A stretch of 64,000 nucleotides of DNA, from NCBI GenBank assembly GCA_973895155.1, contig OZ316898.1, positions 16,351,420 to 16,415,419 of the forward strand, written 5' to 3'. Every line of letters starts with the position of its first letter. The stretch's first letter is position 1. The notes beneath the pieces are model-generated. The model was not told where the DNA came from. It made no database searches and was given only the letters and a program-made list of their open reading frames with translations. Positions 27,659-48,966 of this stretch are shown here, piece after piece. The DNA comes from Marsupella aquatica. Lineage: Eukaryota; Plantae; Marchantiophyta. Both the position numbers and the translations under genes were made by a program.

Positions 27659-30008
27659 ATTGCTCGGTAGTCAATAATAGTAAACAGGTTTGAACCGATG
27701 AGGGAGGAAAGTAGGAGCTAGAAATGCAGAAAGCCTCTATATGTAATTAATCCCTTGGGTATATCGGCCAACCTTCTCCTCCTCAGCAAACTCTTAGCAA
27801 AAACAAAATCTCCCGGGCGAGATATAGCAAAAACCAGTTCGCCAGCGGTTCAGATTCCAGTTCAAGAACCGTCTCAGAACCCAAATAAAACAACCATCAA
27901 AATAGAGGGTCTCAATGCCAGTCTTCACATTAGGACAAGCCGTAATCTGGCAAAAGGACTAGAGGAGGCCAACGCTCGGTCGAAAGGGATACAGCCAAGG
28001 TGGACGCCTTGAAAGTGGAAGTGGCACGGCTTCTACAAGAAGCCGCTAAACAGGACCAACTGGTGGCGTAGTTGATGAGCGACGACCAGTAGTTGCAAGA
28101 GGTGTGCCAGGAGGACGCGGAGGAGACAAACGCGGTGAAATGAGAGAATGAGTCTCTCATGGACCAAGTCCAATTCCTCAAGCAGATCGCCAATTGGCTG
28201 AGGAGGCAACAGGATGGCAACTCCAAGTCCCACTCGGGCGGGTCTGGCAAACGTTGTGCGGACCCCAATCTTTTTGTCATTTTAGTAAAGCACAATTATT
28301 ACCCTAATACAGTTGGGATAGCCATGATGGGTACTTAAGGTACCGCCGCCAGTCGTAACAAGAGGAAGTTGGAACAACTTAAGAAGGTGAGCATGAATTC
28401 ATGGAGAATATTCACAAGATAGAAGATAGCATCCCGGAGTGCTATCGAAGTTGATGAAGCTATGGGTGTAGAAACCCTTTGTATTATTTTAGCTGCAGTA
28501 GAAATTAACAAGAGGGCCATTTGCGCGGATGATTGTGAATGGATATGGTATGACATCCCGATCCGGATCAGGTTTATGCTGCCATTCTTTGAGTGATCAG
28601 GAGCTATAGGGTTCACCCAACCCAAAGACTTATACTTTAGATTAGGAGGGAGGGCCAACAACAGAGTCACGCAAATCTTGCTATCCGAACTGGAGAGAGA
28701 GCACGCTGGCCACCCTCATTACGTAGTGCTAATGGCGGATGCAAACACCACGCATCCCGACTACCCGACATGGAAACTTCATTGGTTCTATAGTTTAGCA
28801 TTACATAGGAAAGTCTTTGATTTAGTGGAGGTAGTTTTGAAGTCCTGGGCGGCAAGGGAGATCCAAACCAACTGTTGGAAGTCTACCCTTCCTCGTCTAG
28901 TTACCTTTCTCCAAACGACAAGATGGCACAATACAAAGCGCAATGGGAGGCGTGTGATCTTCAATCCCTACTTCACCTCCCACCTTATAGTATCCAATGA
29001 GTGGATGAGCTTTGTAGATCTTCCCATCTTACCCCAATTCAGTCAGATTGCCATGACTCATTTTTATTCGCTAGGTAGGGATTCGGCCGCAATGGCCTGT
29101 GCGGGGGATACTATCCAAACTGACAAGTTTCCCTTCGATCCGCTGATTTACATGTGGGTATTTGGGAGAAGACATCCTTTTGGGAAAGGGTAACCCCTAC
29201 GGAGAATGTAATTAGATGGTTTTGCAAGTGTACATAATTATAGATTAGGCAATTACTTTGGACTTGCAACCTTTTGGACTCTGTTGTCAGGATGGATAAT
29301 AGATGAAAGGAAGTGAAGGCCTTATTTTTGAGTTGGAAATATTTGGTGAAGGGATTCAGTTTGGGTGTGAGTTTTGTTTTTTTGGAGAAAGTTCAAAAAG
29401 ACAAAAGAGGAATAAAACAAGTGAAAGTTGAAGCTTAGGCTTAAGGAAATAGAGACAATTATTGTGGTTGAGACACGTGGCATCTTGTGAACACATTTCA
29501 TAAGGATCAGATTCAAAGTGAGACGCAAAGAGGAGGATCGGGAGGAAAATAACTGCCGATCGGAGAAGGAAGTTAGAGAGGGAGTTCGCAAAAGAAGGGC
29601 AACGGAAGAATGAGGCGCTGTGCGGAGCTTGGGGAAAAGGGGGAGATTCAGCCAAAGGGAAATGTTTTTGTAGTGTGGAGGTCTGGGAATTTTTTGAGTG
29701 GCGGAGGCGTCGGTGATCATTATTCATCTGGTCACGACAGCTATGGAAGTATTGTTGAGGTCTTGGGAAAGGGAGGCATGCGATAAAAATTGGAACAAGG
29801 AGAGTGATGCAGCCGATAGTGATTGTGATATAGAAGCTTCTCGGATGATTGAGGTCAAATTCTAAGTCAAATTCTAAGCTCCACGACGACCCAATGAGTC
29901 AAGGGAGCTGTGGCAAAAAAGCCAAATACAAAGCAAAGAAATGAGTCAAATGCTCATGTGAGGATCTCTACATCCTCACTAATAACAAACTAAAGACCTT
30001 AAGAGTCA

Positions 30009-30889
30009 CTAATGTGTAATGCTATCACATCGTTTCCTATCCACTGCCATGATATACAATCCAAGTTGCTTTGGTGGCAACCTAAATAGATCATGCAGAT
30101 CAGAAACAAGGATTTGATGTGCTATTCGAATCTCCTCATACCGTCTACATGCTATGAATACATGATATTCATTCTCAATGCTGCCACTATCACAGAGTCT
30201 ACACACCCTATCCTGCTCCTAATTCCCTTCCATCTACCCTCCTCTACCTCCAAGTGATGTGAGCTGAGTCTATATCTAGCAATCACTTGTCTCAACCTCA
30301 TAGAAATGGGAGCTCTAAGATACTCTTGTTCTTCATACAACATCATGGGGTTTACATCCCTCATAAAATACTGTAATCTAGGGCTAGGATCACTCCAAAG
30401 TTTTCTAATAGCTTTATCACGCAAGAGTGACCAAAGCTTCTTTGGTTGAGTATGTCATTCATGCTCAGATAAGTCCCATGATTGGGCCCAGCTACATACA
30501 TCAGCATACCAACCAAAAGCTCTATATATGTGAAAGGCTTGCGTAGGTAGCCTAGAATCATTCAACGCCTCCACTCTCCTAGCATATTGAAGAGTGTGAT
30601 AGAGAGCTTCAACCTCCAATGGTAGAAGACCTACCTCAGCCAATAACAAGGGGTATGGGGTTTGGGTTTTCACTCCAAGCTCCATCTCCAAGAAAAGCTT
30701 TTGGATGGCCTCTACCTTTTTCCAACAAGATTGAAAAGTAGAAGGGCCCCATACTTGCACCCCATAAAGAATAACAGGCCTTACCAAGGAATTGAAGAGT
30801 TGTTTCTTCAACTTCCAAGCGGAAAGGCTTGCTCCCTTGCACTTCTGAACCATGCTGTAGAAGGCCTTGTAACCATGAGCCACCCTATG
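30009..30889 (-). pseudogene. LINE ORF2 C-terminal part
   Basis: Continues ..ATCVTHR/VAHGYKAF..; RLSSHHLEVEEGRW..CRLC..ENEYH..C; one stop and one frameshift. Confidence 0.9.
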
Positions 30890-31004
30890 TGTGATGCCTA
30901 GACAGGAATCACTCGGCCGGTTAAGTGGGTAAAGCAGGAAGGCACCCTAGGAACACCTTAGTATAGGGACAAAACAAGGAAAATATAAACAATTAGGGGC
31001 AACC

Positions 31005-34000
31005 ATGGAACCCGGGCAGAGGCCGGAGGTAAGGCTGAGGGTGAAAACCCGATTAGGGTTAGGGCGCGTTAAGCGTCGGCGGCTAGGAAGGATCAACGGG
31101 AAGAAGGACCGGCAGAGGAGAGGGGTAAGGAGCGCTTGCAGGAGATGGTGGCTCATTTGCGAGCACGAACTAGGCAGACGACTACGGGAGGCCAACTACT
31201 GTCAGCTGCTTAGGCAAGCACTCGGAGAGAGAATAGATACCGATGATCGACCTAAGGAGGGTATGAGCAACGTCAATCAAGCGGCACATTTCTGGGGATG
31301 CCTGTTCGAACGGGCAACTGAGTACATCAAGACTTACGAGGACGAGGAGTCAGAAAGGGCAGCTCGAGAACGGCAGGAGCTCGCTCGATTGTGGGAGCTG
31401 CAGAAGACGGCTTTCTTAGGAGGCGAACTCATCAAGGACGAGTTCCTGTGGACGCCTACTTCCAATCAACTCGACGATCTTCTGTTTTTCAAAGACAGCG
31501 TCGTCGGCATCCGAGAGGCCATCAAGAACTGCAACGACATACACTGGGAATTAAAGGGTAGCACGGAAAGGTGGACCCAGGCAACGGTGCTAGGAGAAAC
31601 CTCCACGGCAGCAGAGATGAAGAGGAAGGGGGCCGTCAACGATGAAGCCACCCCGGCAAAAAGAATGAGGTCGGCGGCACCAAAGAGGCCAGCCGAGCAG
31701 CTGAGCAGGAGGCAGGGAGAAGCCGAAGAGGAGGAGGTCGATCCCATCAAGGCCATTCCAACCAGGGATGACACCTGGAAGGGCTGGGCGGCAACCCTAC
31801 CGGTGGAGGTGCAACTACATTTTGCACGGGAGGAGGATGCATGCTTTACGGCCATGCAGACCAAGAAGTACCAAGGCTTCATGGCCGGATCCGGCTTGGA
31901 GGCCTTTGTAAGATTACCATGGCTGAAGCCGGAGGTACCGGAGTCAGACCTATTAGAATTCGTGGGGTCATGGGAACCCGAGACCAATTGCACGAGGATA
32001 TATGGGAAGGATTTCTATCTTACTCCCAAGGTAATTGCCGAAGTGTTTGGCTTGCCGATAGGCAATAAGACCAAAGTTGATACCAGGAAGACCTTGCCTG
32101 ACAAGGAGTTCCGGTCGTTCCCCGGGCCATCAACGAAGAATGGCTTCTTCCGGAACACCTGCACCAACCCGCACATAGGAGAGATGATCGACTTCTTGCG
32201 GGTGACCATGCATTGTAACTTGCCGAGGGCAGAGATCGGCAAGGCACAGGTCTATCTGGCAGAAAGGCCAGACCCAAGCCGGGACTACAACGGGTACCTC
32301 CTCAACCAATTGAAGAAGATCTTAAAGGAGGAGCAGCAGGTAATCGGCATGGGGAGCGTGTCGCGGCTTGGCTATCACATGCCGCTGTTGTGCCGGTATG
32401 CCAGAGGTCAGACTTTTGCCCCGGTACTTCCCCTGCAGGTAAGGGCACCCGAGGAAGCTCCAACGCCGAGGCCGTTGGCTGAGAAGCCTCAACCACCTGT
32501 TAGTCCTACGATCGAGCAGGTGTTTAGGCCCAGGAAGGAAGACTTGCCGATGCAGCAACCAGGCATGCAGAGTCTGCTGAAACTACTGGAGAAAGAAAAG
32601 AAATCGGCATCGGCAACAACAACGGCAACGGCAACAATGCAGGACACTACTACAGAGGTAGGCCTACACCGGCTCACAAGAGAAAACCCCTTTGCTGGAG
32701 ACAAGGAGAGAATCAGGCCGGAATCCAAGCCAGGTGTTCGAATGTACGTGGGAACCTCAAGCTCCAAATCTGAGGCAAAATTGCCTGAAGCTCCTACCGA
32801 CGAAGAGGAGAGGGAGAAGCCGGACGTCCAAGAGGTAGAGGAGGCAGTGGAGGACTGCAGCCATGATAATTCCGGCTATGGGTCGGACCATCACGTTCCA
32901 GGAGTAAGGACCTGTGGCCGGTTTGTCCCCACACTTCCAAGGGTAGTGCGAGGGGACCCCAACCAGCAGAGTAGCCCTGAGTCTCCCCCACCAGATGTTG
33001 CTCCCCCGAGCTTCGACGGCATAAAACAGACGGTGCAGGAATTTCAGGAGCGAATCAAGCAGGAGGAGGAGGCCGCCCTGGCTAAGGAAAAGGATTTACC
33101 AGGAGGAGATTGGCCGGAGGACATCAGGCGGCTAGCCGAAAAAGGAAGCAAACCTCTAGCCACGATTGAAGAGATCCGCAGGACGGCTTGGGAGCAGAGG
33201 CCACGATGGGCGATGCCGATCACTTCTACTTACTCCACCTACGCTAAGAATAGAGCCATGGAGTATGGTGAGATGTGTGGGGAACTTGCGCTCGGCCTCT
33301 TTGGAGAGGAGTTGGAGGTAGGACCCTTTTTCCATAGGGAGCAGTTGGAGAAGCACCAATTAGAAGAAGCGGTGGCTTTAGAGAGAAGCAAGAAGGACGA
33401 GGTCATTCGGCGGCTTAGGAGGATGGAAGCCGAGATTGAAGATCTAAGGGCGGCCAAGAAAGCCCAAGATGAACTGCGGATTAAACGACATGAGCTGAAC
33501 ATCATGCAGGGGCAGTTGGACACCGCGCAGGCTGATAATCAGAATATCAAGGATAAACTGACTCAGACGCAGGAAGAGTTGGCCGACACGATCAAAGAGA
33601 GGGAGAAGTGGAAGCAAGAGCTGAAGAATACAGAGGAGGCCCACATAACAGCCAACAGCCGGGCCATGGCGGAGACCCAAAGAAAGGAATGGGCGTTGAA
33701 AGGGGAGCTCGAGAAAATCCGCGGAGCCCTTGAGTAGAAGGAGGTCGAGTTAGGGAAATCCTATCAAGGGATTATGGCGCTGCAGCAGGAGCTTGCGTCC
33801 CTGACGGCCAGCTTCAAGGCCGACCTAAGGGAGAAGGACGAGATGCTCGAACAGACTTACGCCAAGATGAACCAGATGGAGTCTGTCATCATTGCAGAGC
33901 TCGACAAGGAGCTAAGAGCAACCCAGGAGGAGAGGGCTACCTTGAAGAAGGAATTGGAGGAAGCCCATAGGGAGCAGGAGGAGGCCAAAAATGAGCTGGA

Positions 34001-34604
34001 GGGGGCACGTAAGGACCTGGATGAAACCCAAGAGGAGTTGGAGGAAATCACGAGGAAGATGGAGAACCTACAGCGGCGAGCCGACAACCAAACAGAGCGG
34101 CTGAAGAAACAAGCCGCAGTATTTAAATGCTTAGCTGCAGCAGGTCCATCTCCCGTTGGGACAAACCAGTTACCAGGGGTGGTAATTGCCGAAGGACAAG
34201 CCGCGCCACCTGCACCAGTGCCGGAAGTAAGTGGGAAGGGGAAGGGACCAGCTGCCGAGCCACCAACGAAGAAGAAGCGGAAACCTTCAGGGTCAAGGAG
34301 TAATACGACTTCACAGGCCGTGGTGATCAAGGAGGTAGACCCAGCACCGACCCCAGACAGGGTCACGGCTAGGGATCCAACTACCCTAGGGGAAGGGGAG
34401 GCCGAAGCCGAGGGAGTGGCTGAGGCCGAAGCCGTGGGTATTGCCGAGGCCGGTGTCGAGGCTGAAGCCAAAGGTGGACCCAGTCAGGCCGATGGAGAGT
34501 TGACTCAATCAAGGGCAGGTAATCTGTCAGAGAATGAACCTACGGCAGTGGCTGAGGAGGAAGCGTTGGGGGCGTCCATTAAGGATCCACCACCGGTGTC
34601 GTGA
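31005..34604 (+). CDS. LTR-encoded 1199-codon ORF (PMD-like domain plus coiled coil), 5' copy, premature TAG at 33735-33737
   Basis: ORFs 31005-33737 and 33774-34604 are in one frame. The 3' LTR has CAG at the stop position. CAACCATGG start context. Confidence 0.85.
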
Positions 34605-35290
34605 CGGTGCAAGGGCGCCGTTCCTTTTAGGGAGGGCGGACGTGGAGGGAGGAGGCGTGAGTGGGCAGGGCGGGCGCGGATCTCCACGTTTAGGATTAGG
34701 ATCAGAACCAGGAGCGGCCCTGACACTTAGCTTAGTGGGATTGCGGTCCCACTGGTAGGAGCAACACTTGTGCTCCTGCCTTGCTGTACATAGGTAGATT
34801 CGGGCAAGTAGATTACTGTTAAGTAGATTAGGCTTACGATGCAAAGAATGGCGGATCCACTACCAGGATAAGTACCTGGGCAGCGGGGAGCTCAAGGCCT
34901 CTTCTTTAGCAAGTTTTTAGTTTGCACCAGCCGGGCTGGGATCAAGTAGTACGAGAAGCTCTCGGTTAGTCATACAGTGACCCTTGTGTATATTCATGTT
35001 TCCTCATGCCTAAGAGCTGAATAGAGTTGGCCTCACGGCTTAGTTCGCAGAACTTGTGTATGAGATGTACTGTTTGTATGGCAAGTGCATGGTATGACTC
35101 AGTCAGAATGAGTCATTTTGCTATTTGTGTGTCGCATTAACTTGTGTGAAGAGTGCCCACATCAACAGAAGGAAGGAAAGTAAGCAGGGGAGTGAGAGTT
35201 GGATGTGTCGAGCTGAGAGAGGTCTTAGCGGCTTAACCAAGCCTATTGGGGATCATTCCGGCGGCGGAATCCAAACATACCTAACAAGAC

Positions 35291-35335
35291 GGAGGGGAAG
35301 ACAGGGGAAGACAGGGGAAGGCCTATATTAGGCCG
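35291..35335 (+). promoter_or_regulatory. Candidate LTR promoter: three AGGGGAAG repeats followed by a TATA-like TATATTA
   Basis: TATATTA at 35324-35330, about 200 bp before the LTR end. Function is inferred from position only. Confidence 0.45.
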
Positions 35336-35529
35336 GCTACGTATCTCATGACCCGATGAAGGATCTGTCCAGTATATGTGTGTAAAATGTTAATAGTAGT
35401 AGTAGAAGGTTAGCAACGTCCCATGCCGCTAAGCCGCGGAAACGGCCTCGCCAAGCACGAAACCTGCGGGAATCGGCTTGAGCTGGGGGGTTTCTTGGGT
35501 TTAGGGAGCCATGGGACGCACCACATTTT

Positions 35530-35547
35530 TGGCGCTAGATGGAGGGG
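35530..35547 (+). other. Primer-binding site, tRNA-Asn type
   Basis: TGGCGCTAGATGGAGGGG, 4 nt after the LTR. One mismatch to the complement of the plant tRNA-Asn(GUU) 3' end as recalled. Confidence 0.75.
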
Positions 35548-35786
35548 GCATTTCTTAAGCCGTGAGATATGAAGTTAGAACGGAAGCGTAGGTAATGACT
35601 GACCTTACGCCGAGGGAAGAAAGAGTGATTCAATGGGAGAGAGCTCGACTGTAGCAGCTCGCCGGGTGGCATGATACACAGCGACTGAGAGGGGCAGAAA
35701 GAGCTGGTAGCTCCGAAACTGGAAGTGGCGTCGAAGAAGACATACCAGAAGAAGAGTCGGTAAGGAGAAGTGAGTCTCCAACCGAC

Positions 35787-38575
35787 ATGGGGGAACCAGA
35801 GGCACGGCCAGACGAGAGGCCAGGGACCAGATTGAGCCAGCGGTCGCGCATACATTACAAGGCATTTCATGGGAGAGGAGATGAGGATCCGGACGAATGG
35901 TTGGATGATTTCGAGGGAACCGCTGCAGCAAATGGAGAATCGGCCATCAAGATGCAGATTCTTCCCGGCCTGTTCAAGGGTGAGGCTAGGCCTTGGTACA
36001 GAGCATTAGATGTGGAAGATCAAGCCATCTGGGATATCTTCAAAACACTCTTTGTTAAGGAGTTTCGACCCATTGGAACTTCAGAACTAGCAGTGCTGAA
36101 GTTGGGACAACTTCGGTTCAAGGAGAACAAATCCTTCAGGAAGTTCTTGCAACGCTTTCAGAAACTGGTAAGACGTACAAAGACCAATGCATCTGAAGGT
36201 ATGCAACTTCAATGGTTGGTGAATGCTTTGCCACAGAAGATGAGTTTTGCAATTAGGAAGGAGAACCCGGAGACTTTAGCCGAAGCAATTAAGGATATTC
36301 AATTATACATTAATGCAGATATCACAAGCCGGAAGAAACAGCTTAAGTCTGAGAGTTCCTCATCAGAGGAGGGATCACCCCATAAGAAAAAAGATAAGAA
36401 GAAGAAACATCCCAAGAAGTCTAGAAGTGATAAGTCAAGCTCGGATAGTGGGAGTAGCAAGAGTGAGTCATCTTCTAGTTCTGAAGAAGAAAAAACTAGG
36501 AAAAGGAAGGGCAGAAGGAGAGGGAAGACGAAAGTCAAGATGGAGGCTAAGCCACCAGATAACATCGTAGCCCTTACCGAGCAACTTAAGGCTATCATTG
36601 CAGAGGTAAAACCAAAGAAGAAGGTAGTACAGGAGGATAGCTCTGTATGGTGTGCCTTATGTTATAAAACCGGACACCATAAAGATGCGTGTCCTAAGCT
36701 TAATACTAATCATGTTCGGCATGTGGCCGAGATCAGACCATGTCAGGGAGAAGTAGAGTACTTTTTGGGAGATGCCGCTGATAGTGTTTTCGGCATCAGT
36801 GAGACTGGAGCACGAGACCTATCCAACAGACCTGCATCTCTGTGGTCAGGGTTAAGGAACAATCCAGGAGAGATGTATCCTCGGATTATTCAGAACCCGT
36901 CAGTACCTCCTAGGCCGAATGTGCAAAGATTTGCGGCGTGCTATAATTGTGGTCAACCTGGCCATTTTGCTAGAGAATGCCCGAATGCACGCAAACAGGG
37001 TGATGGACAACCAGCTCAGCTATGTATGGGATGCCGACAGGAAGGTCATATGCTAGGGCAATGTCCTACTTGGTTGGCAGGCCTGGCCGCAAATCATAAG
37101 CTTTTGCCGATCAAGATCTTACCGCCAGGTACTACCCCCGGAGGAGTTCAAATCAACCACATCGAACTAGGATGGCAAGAGGATGCCGAGGCAGAGTTCG
37201 TACCATCTGATGATGAGGCCGAAGCCCTATCAACCTTCTCAGAGGAGGATTTAGATCATGATTGCTACCGGGTCTCTACTCGATCTACCAGAAGGAAGGA
37301 AAGGTGGGATGGGCTGGCCAAAAATAAAGGGAAGGTTACGGAGGAAAGGATCGACTCTTCGTCAACATCAACAGAAGGAGAAGGGAGGGCTCCGGCAATA
37401 CAGGTAAGCCATGAGCCCACCAGTGAAACCAATCCTTCACAAGATAGCGACTTCAATCGAGATCATCCTAAGTTGTTCTACCCCTCTGTTACGGCTAGTG
37501 TTAAGGAACAACTAAGAGAATTAGAAACCCTGGAGAATACCGAAGCCATTGCCAAGGATGTAAAACGAGCAAAAGCATTGTTTGCTTCGGAAGACCCAAC
37601 AGCTGTGGAGACTAGCGTGGCAAAACTGGCCGAATCCAAGACGGAAACACCACCAGAAGAGAAGCCGATTGTTCCCTATGACCTGGCTAAAGATGTACTA
37701 GAATCTAGAGTCTCGGCAACAGTAGGTCAACTATTGAAAAATAGCCCGTACTTCCGGAAGCAATTAAGGAAGGCTATTCTCGGCAAGCCGAGATTACCCA
37801 AGGTAGCAACCAGATCCGACGTACTAATGATAGAAGAAGATCAAGGAGCCCCAGCATTACCATTAATGATTCAAGGAGAATTATTACTACGGGTACCCAT
37901 CGGGTATGTATTATGATTGATTCAACAGCAAAAGGGTGGGGTCTAACACCGGAGATGACTGGAAGAGTGTTGAACATGGCCAATGGATATCAGGTCATTC
38001 CGACGGGAGTGTTAACCGGCATCAAGACAGAGATAGGAGGTATCTTCTTTAGCATTAACTATGTAGTAATGAAGCCGGTAAATCCTACGTCATTCCGGCT
38101 ATTGATTGGTAGGCCATGGCTGTACCTAGCCGAGGTAATAGAAGATTGGGGTAAAAAGCAGTTCACTTTCGGGACCCCCTCTATCACGGTATCCTGGGAC
38201 ACTAAGGATGACCGTAGGAAAAGCATAAGGGAAGTAGATGGGTACGACAGTGGACTGGAGTCAGCCGATGAAGTACGTTGGTTAGAATGCCTCACTAACC
38301 TAACCGAAGAAGGTGTCTTTGGACCAGAGGTACCCCCCAGCGGATTATGGCAAGAACCAATGGAAGGTGACTTGGAAGAAGAAGACGAAGAGGTCGAGGA
38401 CTGCTTTACAATAGAATCCACCTTTTTAGCTGCAATTCCGGAGGAAGTAAAGGATGTAGACCAATTGGATGAAACGGCTAAGTGGGGAGCAGTAGCAGGG
38501 ACAGTGGATTTTCTGCAGGCGTTGTGGCAGAGCCGACGGGGTCCACAACGCCATCGATCATCGGCAAGGAATTAA
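35787..38575 (+). pseudogene. Gag-protease ORF (3 CCHC knuckles); a frameshifting deletion at ~37901 removes the protease catalytic motif
   Basis: CALCYKTGHHKDAC, CYNCGQPGHFAREC, CMGCRQEGHMLGQC; RVPI-[gap]-VCIM..LLIGRPWL versus VLVDGGAGVNIM in the relative at 17570. Confidence 0.88.
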
Positions 38576-41500
38576 ATACCAAGGGATCGGCATACAAGCC
38601 GATTACGAGGGCAGAACAAATTGAGGCCCTATTAGAAGCCGAGAGAGCACAGCGGCCTAACTCTCAGGAGCAAGAAGTGGATGAGATGGACAGACACGAT
38701 CCAGAGCCAAGGCAGGAAGGGGAGCCGACCACTAATTCAAAACCGAATAGACCGGTAAGGGGACAATCTATGGACACCAAGGAAGGGACCGACTCGGCTA
38801 GTCCAGCCGAGATCCCAGTTTATGGAGGTATGAGATTAGAGAGACTGGAAGCCGAACTGGACCCGAATTTGAAGAAGCAGATTAATATGATCCAAGCACG
38901 GCAATATCGGAAGCTCGACTTAGGAGAGGGAAGAGAACTGAACTTAGGGAGAAACCTAGCACCTGAGCTCGAGAAAGAGATCAGTGACTTATTGATTGAA
39001 TTTCAGGATGTGTTTGCATGGAGTCACCAAGATCTAAAGGGAGTAGATCCAACACTAGGGGAACATCGAATTGATCTCATGTTAGGAGCCAAATCATTTC
39101 GACAACCAATTCGAAGGATGAACCCGAAGTATTCCCTGCTGGTCAAAACAGAAATCGACAAACTAGTGGAAGCTGGATTCATCACTCCAGTCCTGCATTC
39201 AGACTGGGTGTCTCCAATTGTGATAGTTCCCAAGAAAGCTGGACCCGATGGTAAACCCAAGATCCGGGTTTGTCAGGATTACAGGAAGCTGAATGAAGCA
39301 ACATTAAAAGACCATTTTCCTTTACCGTTTACTGATATGGTACTAGACATGGTAGCCAGTCATGAACTATATTCATTCATGGATGGATACTCTGGTTATA
39401 ACCAAATCAGGATTCGACAGGAAGACCAAATCAAGACGGCCTTCATCACGGAATGGGGGATCTATGTCTTCAATCGTATGCCGTTTGGACTCTGCAACGC
39501 ACCAGCTATGTTCCAACGATTAATGGTGAACATTTTTCATGATTACTTGAGAAAGTTCATGGAAATCTTCATTGATGACTTTGCAGTATTCGGGAAGGCA
39601 TCGAAACATGCTAAATACCTCAGGAAAACCTTCATGAGATGTAGAGAGGTGGGTCTCAAGTTACACCCAGATAAATGTTTTTTTGCAGTAACCGAGGGGG
39701 TGCTACTAGGTCACAAGGTATCAAGGAAGGGCATTGAGATTGACAAAGGTAAGCTAGCAGTATGGCTAGATATCATGCAACCTAAGAACATAAAGGATGT
39801 AAGATCCTTCTTGGGATGCATTGGTTACTATCGCCGGTTCATCAAGGATTTTGCCAAGCTGGCTTTACCATTAACCAATATGCTCAAGGCAGGAGCAGAC
39901 TTCGAACCCACACCCGAACGAGTCACAGCGGTGGTAGAATTGAAGCAGATGTTAGTAGAGGCCCCAATCATGATAGCACCGGACTGGAACAAAGATTTTC
40001 ATGTTTTTGTAGATGTCTCGGGCTTCTGTATTGGCTCAGTACTAAGTCAGTTGGATGAGAAAGGAAGGGACCATCCCATATACTTCGCAAGCCGTCAGCT
40101 TGCCGATGCCGAACGGAACTACTCTACCACGGAAAGAGAAGCATTAGGAGTCATTTATTCTTGTAAAAAGTTTAGGCATTATTTACTAGGGTACAAGGTA
40201 ATCTTTCATACTGATCATGAAAGTTTGAAGTACCTAGTCAATAAGCCGGACCTTACAGGCAGAGTAGCAAGATGGATTTTGCTATTACAGGAGTTTGACT
40301 ATGAGCTGAGGATCAAGCCAGGAAAGTTACATGCCAATGCCGACTTCTTTTCAAGGATCACAGGTAAACCTGCCACGGATTGCATCGATGATCGATTCCC
40401 CGACGAGGAGCTATTCGTTGTGGAAATAGCTGGTACATGGTACCCTGAGATTTTACAATTTCTCAACACTTCCAGATTACAGCCAGGGTTAAGCCGAGAG
40501 CAAGCCGCAGTCTTTGTGCGGAAGGTCAGACAGTATCAGTGCATTAAAGGCATACTGCACAAGCATGGAATCAACGGCACGATTCAAAGATGTTTGGAAA
40601 AGAGAGAGGTAAAACGAGTCCTACGGGCCATGCATGGAGAGGAGGCCGGAGGACATTTTGCCCCAGTAACCACGTCTAAGAAGATATTAAATGCCGGTTA
40701 CTGGTGGCCCACCTTGCACAAAGATGTCTATCAGTTTATCAAACAATGCGATCCTTGTCAACGAGCGGGAGGACCAAGGGCGTCCACCAGGCATCCACTG
40801 CACCCTATTCTACCTCTGGCACCATTCGAGAAGTGGGGTATTGATTACATTGGACCTCTGAAACCACTGACCCACCCTCGACGGAACAAGTACATAATCC
40901 TGGCTACGGATTATGCAACTAAATGGGTAGAGGCCAGACCAACAACGAAGGATGATGCAATTACTACGGCTAGATTCATGTATGAGCAGATCTTCACCAG
41001 GTATGGAGCACCCCTAGAATTAGTTAGTGATAGAGGAACCCATTTTTTGAATGATATAATTAGTCGTTTAAATGAGCAGTATTTAGTTAAACATAGGCCT
41101 ACTACTCCCTACCATCCAAAGGCAAACGGGTTGACAGAACGAGCAAACGGAATCATAGGAAAGATATTGAACAAGACAGTAGCTCAGAACAAACTCGATT
41201 GGGATGATAAATTGTTTGCTGCTGTTTTTGCTTACAATCTTGCCTATAAATCCACTACCGGTCATACACCCTTCTTCTTAACCTTTGGACAAGAAGCCCT
41301 GGTACCCATGCAACTTGAGATACCGACATTTCAAGTTACAATTGAGGAAAGAGCCTCAGCGGAGGAGAGCCTAAAGGAGCGAGAATATAGGTTAGAAGCT
41401 TTAGAGGAAGCGAGAATGATTTCAGCCAAGAGAGTAGAATATAGACAGAATATCATGAAGCAGCAGTATGATAAAAGGTTAAAAGTAGTTAGTATTCATA

Positions 41501-41748
41501 CCGGTGATCTTGTGCTACTTTATGACAGTAGGTATAGTAGGTTTCCAGGAAAGCTTTACACTTGCTGGTTAGGACCCTTTAGAGTAACCATGATGTTCCC
41601 CAATGGCTCCGTACAATTGGCCAACATTACGGGAGAGGTATATCCAGTTCGCATCCATTATGACCGCCTCAAGAAATACTATATGGACGAAGATGAAGTT
41701 GTTCGCGAGGACGCTTCACAATTAAGTGGGGAGCTATGTGATGCCTAG
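38482..41748 (+). CDS. Pol: RT, RNase H, integrase (uninterrupted, -1 frame relative to protease)
   Basis: MDGYSGYNQI, MPFGLCNAP, FIDD, DVSG..EREAL, H..GGH..CDPC, IDY..SDRG..GLTER, WLGPF. The stop codon lies 12 nt inside the 3' LTR. Confidence 0.95.
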   Translation: MGSSSRDSGFSAGVVAEPTGSTTPSIIGKELNTKGSAYKPITRAEQIEALLEAERAQRPNSQEQEVDEMDRHDPEPRQEGEPTTNSKPNRPVRGQSMDTKEGTDSASPAEIPVYGGMRLERLEAELDPNLKKQINMIQARQYRKLDLGEGRELNLGRNLAPELEKEISDLLIEFQDVFAWSHQDLKGVDPTLGEHRIDLMLGAKSFRQPIRRMNPKYSLLVKTEIDKLVEAGFITPVLHSDWVSPIVIVPKKAGPDGKPKIRVCQDYRKLNEATLKDHFPLPFTDMVLDMVASHELYSFMDGYSGYNQIRIRQEDQIKTAFITEWGIYVFNRMPFGLCNAPAMFQRLMVNIFHDYLRKFMEIFIDDFAVFGKASKHAKYLRKTFMRCREVGLKLHPDKCFFAVTEGVLLGHKVSRKGIEIDKGKLAVWLDIMQPKNIKDVRSFLGCIGYYRRFIKDFAKLALPLTNMLKAGADFEPTPERVTAVVELKQMLVEAPIMIAPDWNKDFHVFVDVSGFCIGSVLSQLDEKGRDHPIYFASRQLADAERNYSTTEREALGVIYSCKKFRHYLLGYKVIFHTDHESLKYLVNKPDLTGRVARWILLLQEFDYELRIKPGKLHANADFFSRITGKPATDCIDDRFPDEELFVVEIAGTWYPEILQFLNTSRLQPGLSREQAAVFVRKVRQYQCIKGILHKHGINGTIQRCLEKREVKRVLRAMHGEEAGGHFAPVTTSKKILNAGYWWPTLHKDVYQFIKQCDPCQRAGGPRASTRHPLHPILPLAPFEKWGIDYIGPLKPLTHPRRNKYIILATDYATKWVEARPTTKDDAITTARFMYEQIFTRYGAPLELVSDRGTHFLNDIISRLNEQYLVKHRPTTPYHPKANGLTERANGIIGKILNKTVAQNKLDWDDKLFAAVFAYNLAYKSTTGHTPFFLTFGQEALVPMQLEIPTFQVTIEERASAEESLKEREYRLEALEEARMISAKRVEYRQNIMKQQYDKRLKVVSIHTGDLVLLYDSRYSRFPGKLYTCWLGPFRVTMMFPNGSVQLANITGEVYPVRIHYDRLKKYYMDEDEVVREDASQLSGELCDA
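38506..38565 (+). other. Candidate programmed -1 ribosomal frameshift signal
   Basis: In-phase G_GAT_TTT, 5-nt spacer, perfect 10-bp stem (38518-38527 / 38543-38552), all within the overlap of the PR and RT frames. Confidence 0.7.
41723..41736 (+). other. Polypurine tract
   Basis: TAAGTGGGGAGCTA immediately before the 3' LTR. Confidence 0.8.
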
Positions 41749-44700
41749 ACAGGAATCACTCGGCCGGTTAAGTGGGTAAAGCAGGAAGGCACCCTAGGAA
41801 CACCTTAGTATAGGGACAAAACAAGGAAAATATAAACAATTAGGGGCAACCATGGAACCCGGGCAGAGGCCGGAGGTAAGGCTGAGGGTGAAAACCCGAT
41901 TAGGGTTAGGGCGCGTTAAGCGTCGGCGGCTAGGAAGGATCAACGGGAAGAAGGACCGGCAGAGGAGAGGGGTAAGGAGCGCTTGCAGGAGATGGTGGCT
42001 CATTTGCGAGCACGAACTAGGCAGACGACTACGGGAGGCCAACTACTGTCAGCTGCTTAGGCAAGCACTCGGAGAGAGAATAGATACCGATGATCGACCT
42101 AAGGAGGGTATGAGCAACGTCAATCAAGCGGCACATTTCTAGGGATGCATGTTCGAACGGGCAACTGAGTACATCAAGACTTACGAGGACGAGGAGTCAG
42201 AAAGGGCAGCTCGAGAACGGCAGGAGCTCGCTCGATTGTGGGAGCTGCAGAAGACGGCTTTCTTAGGAGGCAAACTCATCAAGGACGAGTTCCTGTGGAC
42301 GCCTACTTCCAATCAACTCGACGATCTTCTGTTTTGCAAAGACAGCGTCGTCGGCATCCGAGAGGCCATCAAGAACTGCAACGACATACACTGGGAATTA
42401 AAGGGTAGCACGGAAAGGTGGACCCAGGCAACGGTGCTAGGAGAAACCTCCACGGCAGCAGAGATGAAGAGGAAGGGGGCCGTCAACGATGAAGCCACCC
42501 CGGCAAAAAGAATGAGGTCGGCGGCACCAAAGAGGCCAGCCAAGCAGCAGAGCAGGAGGCAAGGAGAAGCCGAAGAGGAGGAGGTCGATCCCATCAAGGC
42601 CATTCCAACCAGGGATGACACCTGGAAGGGCTGGGCGGCAACCCTACCGGTGGAGGTGCAACTACATTTTGCACGGGAGGAGGATGCATGCTTTACGGCC
42701 ATGCAGACCAAGAAGTACCAAGGCTTCATGGCCGGATCCGGCTTGGAGGCCTTTGTAAGATTACCATGGCTGAAGCCGGAGGTACCGGAGTCAGACCTAT
42801 TAGAATTCGTGGGGTCATGGGAACCCGAGACCAATTGCACGAGGATATATGGGAAGGATTTCTATCTTACTCCCAAGGTAATTGCCGAAGTGTTTGGCTT
42901 GCCGATAGGCAATAAGACCAAAGTTGATACCAGGAAGACCTTGCCTGACAAGGAGTTCCGGTCGTTCCCCGGGCCATCAACGAAGAATGGCTTCTTCCGG
43001 AACACCTGCACCAACCCGCACATAGGAGAGATGATCGACTTCTTGCGGGTGACCATGCATTGTAACTTGCCGAGGGCAGAGATCGGCAAGGCACAGGTCT
43101 ATCTGGCAGAAAGGCCAGACCCAAGCCGGGACTACAACGGGTACCTCCTCAACCAATTGAAGAAGATCTTAAAGGAGGAGCAGCAGGTAATCGGCATGGG
43201 GAGCGTGTCGCGGCTTGGCTATCACATGCCGCTGTTGTGCCGGTATGCCAGAGGTCAGACTTTTGCCCCGGTACTTCCCCTGCAGGTAAGGGCACCCGAG
43301 GAAGCTCCAACGCCGAGGCCGTTGGCTGAGAAGCCTCAACCACCTGTTAGTCCTACGATCGAGCAGGTGTTTAGGCCCAGGAAGGAAGACTTGCCGATGC
43401 AGCAACCAGGCATGCAGAGTCTGCTGAAACTACTGGAGAAAGAAAAGAAATCGGCATCGGCAACAACAACGGCAACGGCAACAATGCAGGACACTACTAC
43501 AGAGGTAGGCCTACACCGGCTCACAAGAGAAAACCCCTTTGCTGGAGACAAGGAGAGAATCAGGCCGGAATCCAAGCCAGGTGTTCGAATGTACGTGGGA
43601 ACCTCAAGCTCCAAATCTGAGGCAGAATTGCCTGAAGCTCCTACCGACGAAGAGGAGAGGGAGAAGCCGGACGTCCAAGAGGTAGAGGAGGCAGTGGAGG
43701 ACTGCAGCCATGATAATTCCGGCTATGGGTCGGACCATCACGTTCCAGGAGTAAGGACCTATGGCCGGTTTGTCCCCACACTTCCAAGGGTAGTGCGAGG
43801 GGACCCCAACCAGCAGAGTAGCCCTGAGTCTCCCCCACCAGATGTTGCTCCCCCGAGCTTCGACGGCATAAAACAGACGGTGCAGGAATTTCAGGAGCGA
43901 ATCAAGCAGGAGGAGGAGGCCGCCCTGGCTAAGGAAAAGGATTTACCAGGAGGAGATTGGCCGGAGGACATCAGGCGGCTAGCCGAAAAAGGAAGCAAAC
44001 CTCTAGCCACGATTGAAGAGATCCGCAGGACGGCTTGGGAGCAGAGGCCACGATGGGCGATACCGATCACTTCTACTTACTCCACCTACGCTAAGAATAG
44101 AGCCATGGAGTATGGTGAGATGTGTGGGGAACTTGCGCTCGGCCTCTTTGGAGAGGAGTTGGAGGTAGGACCCTTTTTCCATAGGGAGCAGTTGGAGAAG
44201 CACCAATTAGAAGAAGCGGTGGCTTTAGAGAGAAGCAAGAAGGACGAGGTCATTCGGCGGCTTAGGAGGATGGAAGCCGAGATTGAAGATCTAAGGGCGG
44301 CCAAGAAAGCCCAAGATGAACTGCGGATTAAACGACATGAGCTGAACATCATGCAGGGGCAGTTGGACACCGCGCAGGCTGATAATCAGAATATCAAGGA
44401 TAAACTGACTCAGACGCAGGAAGAGTTGGCCGACACGATCAAAGAGAGGGAGAAGTGGAAGCAAGAGCTGAAGAATACAGAGGAGGCCCACATAACAGCC
44501 AACAGCCGGGCCATGGCGGAGACCCAAAGAAAGGAATGGGCGTTGAAAGGGGAGCTCGAGAAAATCCGCGGAGCCCTTGAGCAGAAGGAGGTCGAGTTAG
44601 GGAAATCCTATCAAGGGATTATGGCGCTGCAGCAGGAGCTTGCGTCCCTGACGGCCAGCTTCAAGGCCGACCTAAGGGAGAAGGACGAGATGCTCGAACA

Positions 44701-46372
44701 GACTTACGCCAAGATGAACCAGATGGAGTCTGTCATCATTGCAGAGCTCGACAAGGAGCTAAGAGCAACCCAGGAGGAGAGGGCTACCTTGAAGAAGGAA
44801 TTGGAGGAAGCCCACAGGGAGCAGGAGGAGGCCAAAAATGAGCTGGAGGGGGCACGTAAGGACCTGGATGAAACCCAAGAGGAGTTGGAGGAAATCACGA
44901 GGAAGATAGAGAACCTACAGCGGCGGGCCGACAACCAAACAGAGCGGCTGAAGAAACAAGCCGCAGTATTTAAATGCTTAGCTGCAGCAGGTCCATCTCC
45001 CGTTGGGACAAACCAGTTACCAGGGGTGGTAATTGCCGAAGGACAAGCCGCGCCACCTGCACCAGTGCCGGAAGTAAGTGGGAAGGGGAAGGGACCAGCT
45101 GCCGAGCCACCAACGAAGAAGAAGCGGAAACCTTCAGGGTCAAGGAGTAATACGACTTCACAGGCCGTGGTGATCAAGGAGGTAGACCCAGCACCGACCC
45201 CATACAGGGTCACGGCTAGGGATCCAACTACCCTAGGGGAAGGGGAGGCCGAAGCCGAGGGAGTGGCTGAGGCCGAAGCCGTGGGTATTGCCGAGGCCGG
45301 TGTCGAGGCTGAAGCCGAAGGTGGACCCAGTCAGGCCGATGGAGAGTTGACTCAGTCAAGGGCAGGTAATCTGTCAGAGAATGAACCTACGGCAGTGGCT
45401 GAGGAGGAAGCGTTGGGGGCGTCCATTAAGGATCCACCACCGGTGTCGTGACGGTGCAAGGGCGCCGTTCCTTTTAGGGAGGGCGGACGTGGAGGGAGGA
45501 GGCGTGAGTGGGCAGGGCGGGCGCGGATCTCCACGTTTAGGATTAGGATCAGAACCAGGAGCGGCCCTGACACTTAGCTTAGTGGGATTGCGGTCCCACT
45601 GGTAGGAGCAACACTTGTGCTCCTGCCTTGCTGTACATAGGTAGATTCGGGCAAGTAGATTACTGTTAAGTAGATTAGGCTTACGATGCAAAGAATGGCG
45701 GATCCACTACCAGGATAAGTACCTGGGCAGCGGGGAGCTCAGGGCCTCTTCTTTAGCAAGTTTTTAGTTTGCACCAGCCGGGCTGGGATCAAGTAGTACG
45801 AGAAGCTCTCGGTTAGTCATACAGTGACCCTTGTGTATATTCATGTTTCCTCATGCCTAAGAGCTGAATAGAGTTGGCCTCACGGCTTAGTTCGCAGAAC
45901 TTGTGTATGAGATGTACTGTTTGTATGGCAAGTGCATGGTATGACTCAGTCAGAATGAGTCATTTTGCTATTTGTGTGTCGCATTAACTTGTGTGAAGAG
46001 TGCCCACATCAACAGAAGGAAGGAAAGTAAGCAGGGGAGTGAGAGTTGGATGTGTCGAGCTGAGAGAGGTCTTAGCGGCTTAACCAAGCCTATTGGGGAT
46101 CATTCCGGCGGCGGAATCCAAACATACCTAACAAGACGGAGGGGAAGACAGGGGAAGACAGGGGAAGGCCTATATTAGGCCGGCTACGTATCTCATGACC
46201 CGATGAAGGATCTGTCCAGTATATGTGTGTAAAATGTTAATAGTAGTAGTAGAAGGTTAGCAGCGTCCCATGCCGCTAAGCCGCGGAAACGGCCTCGCCA
46301 AGCACGAAACCTGCGGGAATCGGCTTGAGCTGGGGGGTTTCTTGGGTTTAGGGAGCCATGGGACGCACCACA
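41737..46372 (+). repeat. 3' LTR (4636 bp)
   Basis: About 19 substitutions versus the 5' LTR counted by eye; no net indel. Confidence 0.96.
41852..45451 (+). CDS. LTR-encoded 1199-codon ORF, 3' copy, premature TAG at 42140-42142 (1100 aa open after it)
   Basis: ORFs 41852-42142 and 42149-45451 are in one frame. The 5' LTR has TGG at the stop position. Confidence 0.85.
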
Positions 46373-46377
46373 CTATG

Positions 46378-48954
46378 CGTCACACATGTAGCCCAACTCA
46401 TGCTTCGAGAAAACTCCACCCCAAGATACTTGTAAGAGGTCACCATCTCCACCTTTTCACCTGCAAAATAGAGAGAAAGCTCTTGCTTTGTACCAAGTAC
46501 AAGGCACTTGGTCTTCCTCATGTTGACCTGCATGTCTGATTGTTTGCAAAAATGCTCTAGGGCTAGAAGATGTTGTTGCAAATCAGATTGGGAGTGAGCT
46601 AGAAGCACCACATCATCTGCAAATATAAGAAGTTGGATGGCCAATGTTCCCAACTGAGAACCTACGCCTCCCATCTCCTCTAGCAAATCATGTAGTTGGT
46701 CAATGAAGACCCCAAAGAGCGTTGGAGGTAGTGGGCAGCCTTGGATCACACCAAGTGTGCTAGGAACCTCCTCATAGCTACTACCAGAGAATCTAATCAT
46801 TACCTTTTGATACAATTGTGCAATAGCTATTCTCATCTCAAGAGGAACTTCGAGACTAATCAACCGCTTCCAAAGCTTGTGTCTACAAACCCTATCAAAT
46901 GCTTTGGAGAAGTCTACAAACAAGCAAAATAGAGGTAGCTTGAGTCTTTTAGCCCTCTCCTCTAACACTCTAAGGCAAAGCATGTGATCTAGAGTACTAA
47001 AACCTGCCCTAAAACCAGCTTGTGATGATGCTCTTTTCATGTGTTTTTCAACCCAAGAACTAAGTCTAGCTTCTAGTAGTCCTCCTAAAACTTTAGCAAA
47101 GATACTAGCTATCATGATAGTCCTATAGTTGCTCACCTCATTCTTAGAGCCTCCCTTGTGAATAGGTACCAATCTCCTTGTACTCCAATCTGGAGGTAAG
47201 CCACCTTGGACCACTTGATTCAAACATGCAGTGAGTGCTAATACCAAAGAAGATCCACCCCATTGCAAATTGTAGGAGCTCCACTGTGAACCCTTGCAAA
47301 TCTGCAGCCTTGCCCTTTTGCATTCTAGATAGTTGAGTTTGCACCTCTATATCTGAGAATTGAATAGCTTCCCCAATCTCCAAAGGCATGGAAGTAGCTT
47401 CGGGATAGAAGTAGAGAGACTTCACATAGCTTACCAATGTTTGTTGCTCCAAGCAAGTATCTTCTTTTTTCACCTGAAATCTCTTCCAAAAGCCTTTAGG
47501 ATTCTCTTGAAGTTATTGGGAAAGCACTTGTTGATGTTGCCTCATGAAGCATCTCTTCTTGTGCTTCACAAAGTTACTATACATTCTCAATGCAAGTAAC
47601 TTTACATCTTCAGGTTGTGCCATGGCCCTCCTTCTAGCTTCTACACACTCTGCATCAAACCATGCTTTCATGGTTTGTTTTGTGGACAATGATCTTTTAG
47701 AGAATACAGTAGTAGTTGCTTTTGCTATCAGTTGTGATAGTTCCAACACATTGGAATGTGTTGGTAGTAGGGCCTCAATCTCCCCTCTAAATCTCGGGGG
47801 GGTCACTTCCACAAATGTTGACATCATGTGCGAACGAAGTAAGGGGCGTTTTATTCATTTTAGGGAAGTACTTAGAAGTAGCGAGGAAGTAAGTAAGGGG
47901 GTAACAATTCAAAAAGTGCCACTTGTCATCACATGATTCATTGCTTGCCATGTGTCGATAAATGATTGATGGGTTTTTTGAGCTTCCTATTCCTTTTTGA
48001 GAGAGTGATTAAATAGGGGCGTTCGCACATGGTATACAACAATTTCATAAGGTGAACCCCCCGAGCTCTAAATACATCAGCCTTATCATGATCCAGAAAG
48101 AGTCTAGAAATATGTCTTTTCCTTGTTATCCCCTCTCTAAAACTTGTGGCCAAATCTAGATGAAATAACAAGGGTAGATGTGAAGACTCTGGTTGTTGAT
48201 CAAGTATTCTAAAATCAATCACTCTACTAGCTGAAGATGGTGATGCTAGGAGATAATCAATGGTGCTACATCCTTGGCTTGATCTAAATGTATAACCTGA
48301 TGAATGAGGAAATCTTTCAAGCCCATTCAATATTCTCAGATTACAAGAAGCTCCTAATTGCAGAAAATGGGGTGTCATATCATTTACCCTAGTATCTATA
48401 GCTTTTCTCAACCAAGATGAGTCTTTATTACATGATATCCAAGGCAATGCCCCCAAATCTCCACTATCAATGAATTGTTGGTGAGACACTCTAGCATTAA
48501 AGTCTCCCACTATCCATGTCTCTCCTAGTACTGATACATCATGTATAACTTGAATCAAGTTATGGAATGGATATTGTGCATTAGCAGTTCCCATCTTGTA
48601 CACATTCATGCTAAGTGGGGCAAAATAGGTGGCAATTAGAAATGATGGAATACCTCTAGTATGTAGTCTCACCACCATGAATTGCTTGCTTGGATTTTCA
48701 TGCTCAATAGATGTCATGTGTTGAAGATGATTCTTGGTGTAGACTGCAATACCTCCGAACCCTCTTCCCCTTGTGGTGTTCTTTTTATTGAAGAGAGATC
48801 CAATGCAAGTAAAATCCTTGATGCTAGGTAGATCATTCTCCTCATATTGCCAAGTCTCCAGGAAGAGCAGGATGTCAGCATTCTCAAACAAGGGTTCTCC
48901 TCCTATTGCTGATTCTATGGAAAGTCCTGAAATATTCCATGCCATGACTCTCAA
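46378..48954 (-). pseudogene. LINE ORF2 N-terminal part: APE endonuclease plus RT, frameshifted
   Basis: MAWNI.GL, FLETW, VGDFNAR, STIDY, SSHLP; QAGFR, QGCPL, FADD. Confidence 0.92.
47793..48065. mobile_element. 273-bp MITE with ~45-bp imperfect TIRs and 8-bp TSD
   Basis: CTCGGGGGG..CATGTGCGAACG / CGTTCGCACATG..CCCCCCGAG; TSD CTCTAAAT at 47785-47792 and 48066-48073. Removal restores LINE ORF2 (ADVFR-GEIEA). Confidence 0.9.
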
Positions 48955-48966
48955 GGTCCCAACCCA

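Follow-up and report, generated by a model that had tools for sequence, protein, structure and literature searches.

A liverwort Ty3/gypsy retrotransposon with a protein-coding gene inside its long terminal repeats and a family-specific sequence word

A selected gene lies within both LTRs of a young element

The element described here lies in a 64-kb window of contig OZ316898.1 from the liverwort Marsupella aquatica (all coordinates are positions in this window), and is a young, high-copy Ty3/gypsy retrotransposon in which both long terminal repeats (LTRs) carry the same long open reading frame (ORF). The initial annotation had placed in each LTR a 3,600-bp frame that begins 115 nt from the LTR start and fills 78% of its 4,636 bp, with one different nonsense change per copy, and our comparison of the two LTRs reproduced this arrangement, the stop of copy 1 falling at codon 911 and that of copy 2 at codon 97. 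The element has the following main parts (TSD, target-site duplication; LINE, long interspersed nuclear element; PBS, site of primer binding; PPT, polypurine tract):

30885..30889 (left copy) and 46373-46377 (right copy), + strand: TSD CTATG, 5 bp, from insertion into a LINE (flank comparison)
30890..35525, + strand: 5′ LTR, 4,636 bp, with TG..CA ends (alignment to the 3′ LTR)
31005..34604, + strand: LTR gene copy 1, 1,199 codons, with a private stop at codon 911 (33735-33737); likely true start at Met87 (31263)
34605..35525, + strand: non-coding 3′ part of the LTR, with a U-rich/TGTA region (~34985-35150), a GA-rich stretch, a TATA-like TATATT (35324) and a weak PPT-like relic (34885)
35530..35547, + strand: PBS, after four T; 25 bp are identical to the site before a sister gag relic at 7589
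35787..37901, + strand: gag (capsid, zinc knuckle), ending at the frameshift that removes the protease catalytic motif
37904..41748, + strand: rest of pol in two frames, with a protease (PR) remnant, reverse transcriptase (RT), RNase H (RH), together with integrase (INT), without aRH and without a chromodomain
41701..41736, + strand: conserved PPT block fused to the integrase end; with the first 8 LTR bases, 38/45 columns match the LTR-adjacent block of a related element, L001
41737..46372, + strand: 3′ LTR, 4,636 bp (alignment to the 5′ LTR)
41852..45451, + strand: LTR gene copy 2, with a private stop at codon 97 (42140-42142; LTR comparison)

A gap-free alignment of the two LTRs (30890-35525 and 41737-46372) covers 4,636 bp and contains 19 substitutions (99.59% identity), and their divergence of 0.0041 corresponds to an insertion age of 0.16–0.46 million years under three assumed rates. 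Elsewhere in the window, at 16291-16360 on the minus strand, another copy of the LINE is uninterrupted at this site and has a single CTATG, so the element is a true insertion, neither a tandem array nor an assembly duplication. This empty site, together with the TG..CA LTRs, TSD, PBS and PPT, marks a genuine LTR retrotransposon insertion, and the boundaries proposed earlier for both LTRs held under alignment and flank analysis, as did the observation that pol runs through the PPT and stops 12 nt inside the 3′ LTR (at 41748). We take the PBS to be tRNA-Asn-like. The TATATT at 35324 is a candidate genomic promoter, and a poly(A) role is likewise predicted for the LTR tail.

Several lines of evidence show that the LTR frame is a real gene under selection. 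The longest stop-free frame in the LTR spans 928 codons, compared with a best of 349 in 300 LTR shuffles, and a codon model trained on gag and pol scored the ORF frame best in 13/13 blocks and the non-coding LTR as negative in 9/9 frames. The LTR stretch is present in 13 sequencing runs from 9 studies, and seven of these runs (including X1, X2, X7 and X8) were analyzed. The copy-1 stop was absent from ~98% of the depth in the deep runs X1 and X2, and the copy-2 stop from 98.7% of the depth in X2; both stops are therefore private and the parent ORF was intact, as had been proposed. Among the indels listed (12 of 15), three fell in the ORF, comprising one of 3 bases and one +1/−1 pair, and kept the frame, and the other nine lay in the 920-bp non-coding LTR tail (p 0.002 when counted as events). 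A second variant set contained 10 indel rows, all in the ORF and mostly from run X7, which summed to whole codons within each depth group; a single-base loss in the ORF also occurred alone, at 0.2% of the depth in X2. Synonymous changes accounted for 16/34 ORF variants in the first set (p ~0.03, among the 40 of 479 variants listed) and 9/23 in the second (among the 40 of 284 listed), both of which are weak evidence. Differences between the two LTRs within the ORF comprised 13 non-synonymous and 4 synonymous changes, as expected of neutral decay after insertion.

Comparison with other sequences pointed the same way. Measured against a paralogue fragment in the window (17244-17441; 56 coiled-coil codons, short and of low complexity), dN/dS was 0.16. 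A phmmer search with residues 87–480 recovered 21 proteins at E<=1e-3, 20 of them plausible, the best at 41% over 233 aa and two from Calypogeia fissa; the remaining one, P0132, is an adhesin-like protein of bacterial type and was excluded as spurious before alignment. Word-indexed protein searches (limited in length) and a metagenome scan with the globular domain returned no relative of the LTR protein. Codon bias, indels, homologues and dN/dS together bear out the earlier proposal of an accessory gene inside both LTRs, which would be duplicated at each insertion. Across four runs, the variants of the LTR at 30890-35525 showed a strand bias: read on the plus strand, A>G (~70 places) and G>A (50–70 places) dominated over C>T and T>C (~17–35).

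The gene has the following parts, in copy 1 unless indicated:

30984..30989, + strand: TATAAA, putative LTR-gene promoter by sequence; a start 25–35 nt downstream would pass the ATG at 31005
31263..31604, + strand: N-terminal conserved block, residues 87–200, to which P0125, P0127 and P0129 align; no Pfam match
31767..32429 (copy 2: 42614-43276), + strand: conserved globular domain, residues ~255–475; candidate DNA-binding domain resembling VANC, the Plant Mobile Domain (PMD) or Transposase_32
33357..34109, + strand: long coiled coil, residues ~785–1035 (heptad scan), free of Pro and Gly, with coiled-coil Pfam matches below cut-off and a paralogue at 17244-17441
34263..34283, + strand: PTKKKRK, residues 1087–1093, resembling a nuclear localization signal (NLS) by sequence only

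Met87 (31263) is probably the start of the protein, since no homologue aligns before residue 91, where one of them opens with a Met, and the TATAAA, the only one in the LTR, lies 21 nt upstream of the first ATG. Codons 1–86 had coding scores of 0.05 under one codon model and −0.07 under another. Ahead of Met87, the stretch 31025-31215 contains a pair of GGTAAG sites resembling splice donors, a pair of short upstream ORFs and TTAGGG words of telobox type, and a leader intron in this region is possible. The ~250-aa heptad coiled coil and the NLS-like motif of the initial annotation were both recovered, by heptad scan and in the sequence. No transmembrane segment was detected in the LTR protein (highest 19-residue hydropathy 0.8), so it is not env-like.

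The gag-pol region occupies three frames and has lost the protease catalytic motif near 37901, so this copy is defective and not autonomous; its closest relative, P0096, is in a single frame. In its PR-RT-RH-INT order and 5-bp TSD, and in a Pfam scan, the element corresponds to the non-chromovirus OTA elements that lack aRH (Athila/Tat Z2 type). Phygy and Selgy are excluded by the length of the TSD, which is 4 bp in both (PMC6317226, additional file 5). The nearest named pol relatives are from Calypogeia fissa (67–68% over RT-RH), followed by Riccia and Marchantia proteins. Pol trees of 100 rows (21/120 matches omitted for short overlap) and of 20 rows placed the element in a group with P0096 and two Calypogeia proteins (100/100), separate from the Athila-like pols of angiosperms, and this group is nested in a clade containing the Riccia and Marchantia proteins. 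The placement is compatible with membership of the liverwort aRH-less cluster Tat Z2 but does not prove it.

The LTR-borne layout across the family and its origin

Sequencing runs support an ORF-in-LTR layout throughout the family. In run X2, 15/15 LTR bins were deeper than all 14 pol bins (medians 599k vs 193k, 3.1-fold); run depth is not copy number, and the step counts as support rather than as a count. Tail-to-ORF depth ratios of 1.1 and 1.5 indicated no fall from the ORF to the LTR tail, and one contig from run X8 joined a foreign flank exactly at 41737. In run X7, positions 41700-41739 were shared with a different high-depth family that has only the PPT block in common, preceded there by AT-rich sequence and followed by a different LTR.

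Extra ORFs of plant Ty3/gypsy elements are internal and present once per element, from which the gene described here departs by its presence in both LTRs. To place it among its relatives, we used 79 loci retrieved by pol (L-numbered). A profile of the LTR-protein family, searched against 2,707 ORFs, ranked as its top three the internal post-pol ORFs of L001 (independent E-value 1.5e-4), L022 (8.7e-4) and L013 (0.4), with the best reversed control at 0.19. The extra ORF is internal in 5/5 resolvable relatives (L001, L005, L013, L022 and L024), three of which were placed on the pol tree and span both the bryophyte and Athila clades. Because all five carry a related ORF internally, the LTR position appears to be derived, and capture of the gene from an internal post-pol ORF is well supported.

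L001 (637-8030), a bryophyte-clade element, has two PPTs flanking its internal extra ORF, in the order pol, PPT, ORF, PPT block, 1-kb non-coding LTR and PBS. A PPT behind pol and another before the LTR are also present in L024, which has the full block twice, and it is the second block of L001 that accounts for the 38/45 matching columns at our pol/LTR junction. The LTR of L001 gave no alignment with either non-coding part of the LTR studied here. L005 seemed at first to be a second LTR-borne case, with a 6.19-kb end repeat that includes the ORF; this repeat is a circular overlap, without TG..CA bounds, and the element has a PPT after the ORF and an LTR of ~1.4 kb.

Traces of related elements were also found elsewhere in the window. 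A scrambled sister-family relic at 17244-19100 (+) contains the coiled-coil end of an accessory gene (41%), a protease piece and a globular-domain piece (24%, E 1.7e-5), and a decayed sister-family gag at 7589-9187 (+) follows the same PBS (25 identical bases), with no trace of the LTR gene upstream. A frameshifted relic at 26032-27670 (−) is of a second extra-ORF type related to that of L001 (26% over 93 aa, E 2e-7), and no adjoining LTR or pol was found. Nested and inverted pieces of the LINE family occupy 2815-5242, 10049-17250, 29854-30889 and 46373-48966, the element having inserted into one of them; two pieces measured for CpG observed/expected (o/e) gave 0.12–0.15, a strong depletion. 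A 19-bp tandem array lies at 60838-61390.

The WWGCCG word and the globular domain

We compared word counts in the whole element with those in synonymous-codon shuffles, for which the null maximum was z 5.1. Three words, TCGGCA, AAGCCG and ATGCCG, were enriched at z ~8 and merge into WWGCCG:

31080..40970, both strands: 80 WWGCCG sites, candidate binding sites of the LTR protein, in one LTR and the internal region; the LTR sites recur in the 3′ LTR

The density of this word is 7.4 per kb (80 in 10.85 kb), compared with 0.7–1.0 per kb in the rest of the window and in a neighboring copia element. The pattern was chosen from the data and then checked separately for each gene: the LTR ORF has 36 sites where 10.9 are expected, gag has 14 (4.5 expected) and pol 16 (6.4 expected), each count reached in 0/1,000 shuffles, and the sites occur on both strands and in all codon phases. 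WWGCCG takes up 15–22% of the CGs in the element's genes and 3% in the copia, which has as many CGs. It was not enriched in the copia (6 vs 6.9 expected) or in 11/11 related elements; four control words were not enriched and related CG words were at or below expectation. The +1 base is mostly A and is not fixed. WWGCCG is thus shown to be an element-wide, family-specific word, and accumulation of such a short word in the encoding element is a VANC-like trait. It is a likely target of the LTR protein. The copia that served as control (20104-25899, −) is very young, as it has identical ~147-bp LTRs and an unbroken 1,545-codon ORF.

Some relatives have words of their own. L001 has a clustered CG word, AGCGCT, at 14 sites, with AGCGCT/GCGCTA in its pol, ORF, LTR and leader, and L010 and L028, which bear Transposase_32, have the enriched CG words CAGCGA/CTCGCC (z 7–9, the z values of these loci being without a calibrated null).

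We next consider the globular domain, which the initial annotation had assigned to PMD. This assignment was not borne out by sequence, with no match to PF10536 for the protein (at E<=0.1 or <=10) or for the 21 search matches. Its nearest sequence links are instead the internal extra ORFs of related elements, some of Transposase_32 type: the extra ORFs of L010, L014 and L028 score above the Transposase_32 cut-off and that of L013 below it, and L022, already matched by the LTR-protein profile (8.7e-4), was also recruited by a profile seeded on PF20167-matching ORFs. The reverse search was not significant, nor was BLASTP of the domain against L001 and L005 (Smith-Waterman z 4–6), and L001 matched the Transposase_32-type profile at a probability of 0.5%. 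A profile of the LTR protein matched no PDB sequence at E<=1. The nearest clusters in the Atlas are from streptophytes and include DUF1985 (0.88–0.89) and PMD (0.88; PMD in 14% of members), which serve as leads only.

A single-sequence fold of the domain (pLDDT 31) was uninformative. In a wide structure search with the domain model, the VANC21-DNA structure 9lnk_A ranked 12 of 48,161 (Z 3.6, root-mean-square deviation 4.9), a weak match in which 155 residues were aligned, compared with 47–98 for the other 49 rows. The VANC21 structure is 9LNK (PMC13547354), and it had been named as such in the paper before the fold-search result was known; with Z within noise, the match is a named target turning up and not proof. 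Foldseek gave nothing at E<=1e-3 in PDB or BFVD, and its top BFVD row, the 805-aa viral-library model A0A890CAY5 (E 0.013, probability 0.90), was the only near-significant match. PMD itself is described as structurally similar to the DUF1985 of VANC (bioRxiv 10.1101/2024.09.27.615353), and the domain is linked to the PMD fold only indirectly, by way of VANC21. Judged by sequence and modeled fold, the domain is probably of the PMD/VANC/Transposase_32 kind while belonging to none of the three Pfam families.

A proposed self-recognition role, its alternatives and known systems

Our favored reading is that the LTR carries a VANC/PMD-like self-recognition factor that would bind WWGCCG and shield the family from silencing, a chain to which, taken whole, we give an even chance. 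Tentatively, and with more doubt than belief, we put forward the idea of a VANC-like anti-silencing protein with sequence specificity that is encoded in the LTR of a plant retrotransposon and whose target word WWGCCG occurs throughout the element. The chain begins with a gene that lies within the LTR, is under selection and is copied twice per insertion. Outgroups suggest that its ancestor was an extra ORF of the usual kind, located after pol and before the 3′ LTR; plus-strand priming would then have shifted to the PPT block behind integrase, making the old 3′ internal region U3. Expression would proceed from the gene's own start near the LTR 5′ end, with translation from Met87, and either LTR, or a solo LTR, could supply the protein in trans to defective copies like this one. 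The protein may enter the nucleus by its basic motif, oligomerize through the coiled coil and bind cooperatively to the dispersed sites, and by analogy with VANC and MAIL/MAIN this binding would oppose DNA methylation or Polycomb marks on the family. A nuclear accessory protein with an anti-silencing or targeting role had been proposed in the initial annotation: the gene proved real and selected, and WWGCCG and the weak fold link to VANC21 lend some backing to anti-silencing, but the assignment to PMD did not find support.

A number of observations weigh against this chain. Neither the LTR protein nor its 21 homology matches hit the Pfam models for PMD, DUF1985 (PF09331) or Transposase_32 (PF20167); the 21-sequence fold of the domain is mediocre (pLDDT 60, pTM 0.39); the 9lnk_A match lies within tool noise and is absent from the Foldseek list; and hhalign of the LTR protein with Transposase_32-type ORFs reached a probability of only 23–26% (E ~0.0008). 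No clear CG word was found in 6/9 relatives that bear an extra ORF, and no enriched word, WWGCCG included, was found in the non-coding LTR alone, WWGCCG being dispersed through the genes, whereas VANC21 sites are reported to cluster in non-coding tandem repeats (PMC5735166). CpG o/e is 0.6–0.8 in the element and 0.12–0.15 in the LINEs, but it is 0.81 in the copia; since the copia matches the mild CpG loss of the element, CpG retention indicates no special protection. As for the route of capture, two observations speak against a simple PPT switch: the pol/LTR junction resembles the downstream block of L001 rather than the PPT behind its pol, and what remains of a second PPT, at 34885, is weak (164/5,000 shuffles, picked post hoc).

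The alternative that survives best, possible in our view though unlikely, accepts the LTR-borne gene and has a host factor, for example of AP2/ERF type, bind WWGCCG, with the LTR protein having some other nuclear role, such as tethering the integration complex to chromatin or activating transcription. AP2/ERF-type proteins recognize sites with a GCCG core, and the weak link between the domain and VANC, the six relatives without a clear word and the location of the element in a nest of transposable elements, as a targeting factor would favor, all suit this explanation. It accords less well with the family specificity of the word, which is absent from the copia and from 11 relatives, other CG words being present in L001, L010 and L028. 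The word also runs through the genes on either strand and is not limited to a promoter, and its +1 base is mostly A, unlike the fixed base of the GCC box. Accessory proteins of plant elements are described as nuclear and of unclear role (PMC7264820), which would also fit.

Less probable still is an explanation that concerns the layout only. In it, R/U5 is very long and contains the gene as a 5′ extra ORF at the head of the genomic RNA, like Ogre ORF1, whole-element transcription starts just past the TATAAA at 30984, and the LTR lengthened because the start site or the LTR ends moved, not because of a PPT switch. Minus-strand strong-stop DNA would then have to reach ~4.5 kb and the leader ahead of gag 4.7 kb, and the homologues lie 3′ of pol in 5/5 resolvable relatives; a second TATA-like box is also present 460 nt before gag. 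On the other side, the LTR has no TATAAA except the one at its 5′ end, and the junction block matches the block with which the LTR of L001 normally starts, which would suit an insertion of the ORF behind such a start.

We consider it quite improbable that the word arose through a mutation or methylation bias, under which this context would best preserve CG sites, and that the gene is a passenger or active at the RNA or particle level. WWGCCG does contain CG and CCG, which are methylated contexts, and it accounts for the above 15–22% of element-gene CGs, but a genome-wide bias would appear in the copia, where the word takes up 3% of CGs, and across the remaining window (0.7–0.9 vs 7.4 per kb), related CG words are not above expectation, and a protein without a transmembrane segment is not env-like. 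Finally, an assembly artefact or tandem elements mimicking long LTRs, of the sort that the circular overlap of L005 exemplifies, can be dismissed, as this was ruled out at the locus by the empty LINE site, the TSD, TG..CA, PBS, PPT and 19 LTR differences, and other runs add the depth step and the foreign flank at 41737.

A gene of >1,100 codons in a plant LTR violates the convention of annotating LTRs as non-coding, illustrates one way for LTRs to reach several kb, and means that solo LTRs may stay protein-coding. If the self-recognition reading is true, each insertion and each solo LTR would be a self-contained cassette of factor and binding sites, and the extra ORFs of Athila/Tat/Ogre would encode proteins by which each family recognizes itself, their liverwort branch being much more ancient than the PMD and VANC examples of angiosperms. 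Reviews treat what extra ORFs do in plant LTR retrotransposons as an open question (PMC7264820, PMC11963269, PMC6317226). The LTR protein brings a concrete prediction, WWGCCG binding, and L001 with its different word provides a specificity control, so a simple binding assay would directly test this role.

HIV nef overlaps the LTR. MMTV sag/naf resembles our case as a protein gene inside the LTR, present in two copies per insertion and with a promoter (putative here) in U3, and differs in being retroviral, far smaller and unrelated, with a U3 position that is demonstrated there and inferred here (PMC9412291). Liverwort Tat Z2 elements likewise lack aRH and a chromodomain, and their pol lies near Calypogeia, Riccia and Marchantia; the passages describing them mention no extra ORF or long LTR (PMC13468544).

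VANC of VANDAL is similar in being transposon-encoded, in its coiled coil, in the family-specific short words of the encoding element and, as a candidate, in its fold. However, VANDALs are eudicot Mutator-like DNA transposons and the host element here is a liverwort Ty3/gypsy, the LTR protein has no PF09331 match, and the clustering of VANC sites in non-coding tandem repeats contrasts with the dispersal of WWGCCG through genes (PMC5735166). Binding and hypomethylation have been demonstrated for VANC (PMC5735166) and are predicted for the LTR protein. Both VANC and the Athila domain are predicted to oligomerize via a coiled coil (PMC13547354). The host PMD proteins MAIN, MAIL1 and MAIL2 offer a further parallel, as PMD resembles VANC DUF1985 and they act via DNA motifs against Polycomb silencing, and the PMD-A clade is Gypsy-encoded (PMC5418596, bioRxiv 10.1101/2024.09.27.615353). 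Unlike the LTR protein, which fails the PF10536 model, they are host genes described from angiosperms. Sequence-specific anti-silencing has been demonstrated for VANDAL DNA transposons, and the papers we examined contain no report of it for an LTR retrotransposon.

The closest comparison is with the extra ORFs of plant non-chromovirus Ty3/gypsy elements, namely Athila ORF1 (PF03078, 3′ sense), Ogre PMD (PF10536, mostly 3′ antisense), the Transposase_28/SMC-like domains of Retand, and Transposase_32 (PF20167) (PMC6317226, PMC7264820, PMC11963269). For extra ORFs, Neumann et al. record PMD, Athila ORF1, Transposase_28 and SMC-like domains (PMC6317226, additional file 4), reviews place these ORFs in the internal region (PMC7264820, PMC11963269), and the relevant passages describe no target word for them (PMC6317226, PMC7264820, PMC11963269). 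Our searches of the literature found neither a plant LTR-borne gene nor a target word for an extra ORF, and additional file 1 of PMC6317226 may list cases. Like the extra ORFs of Athila, Ogre and Retand, the LTR gene belongs to the same superclade, combines a plant-transposon globular domain, a disordered linker and a coiled coil, and has internal homologues in sense orientation behind pol. Unlike them, it fills 78% of both LTRs, with pol abutting the LTR, and has no Pfam match. The kind of gene is known, from the extra ORFs of Ogre/Tat/Athila; its position in the LTR and its word are new.

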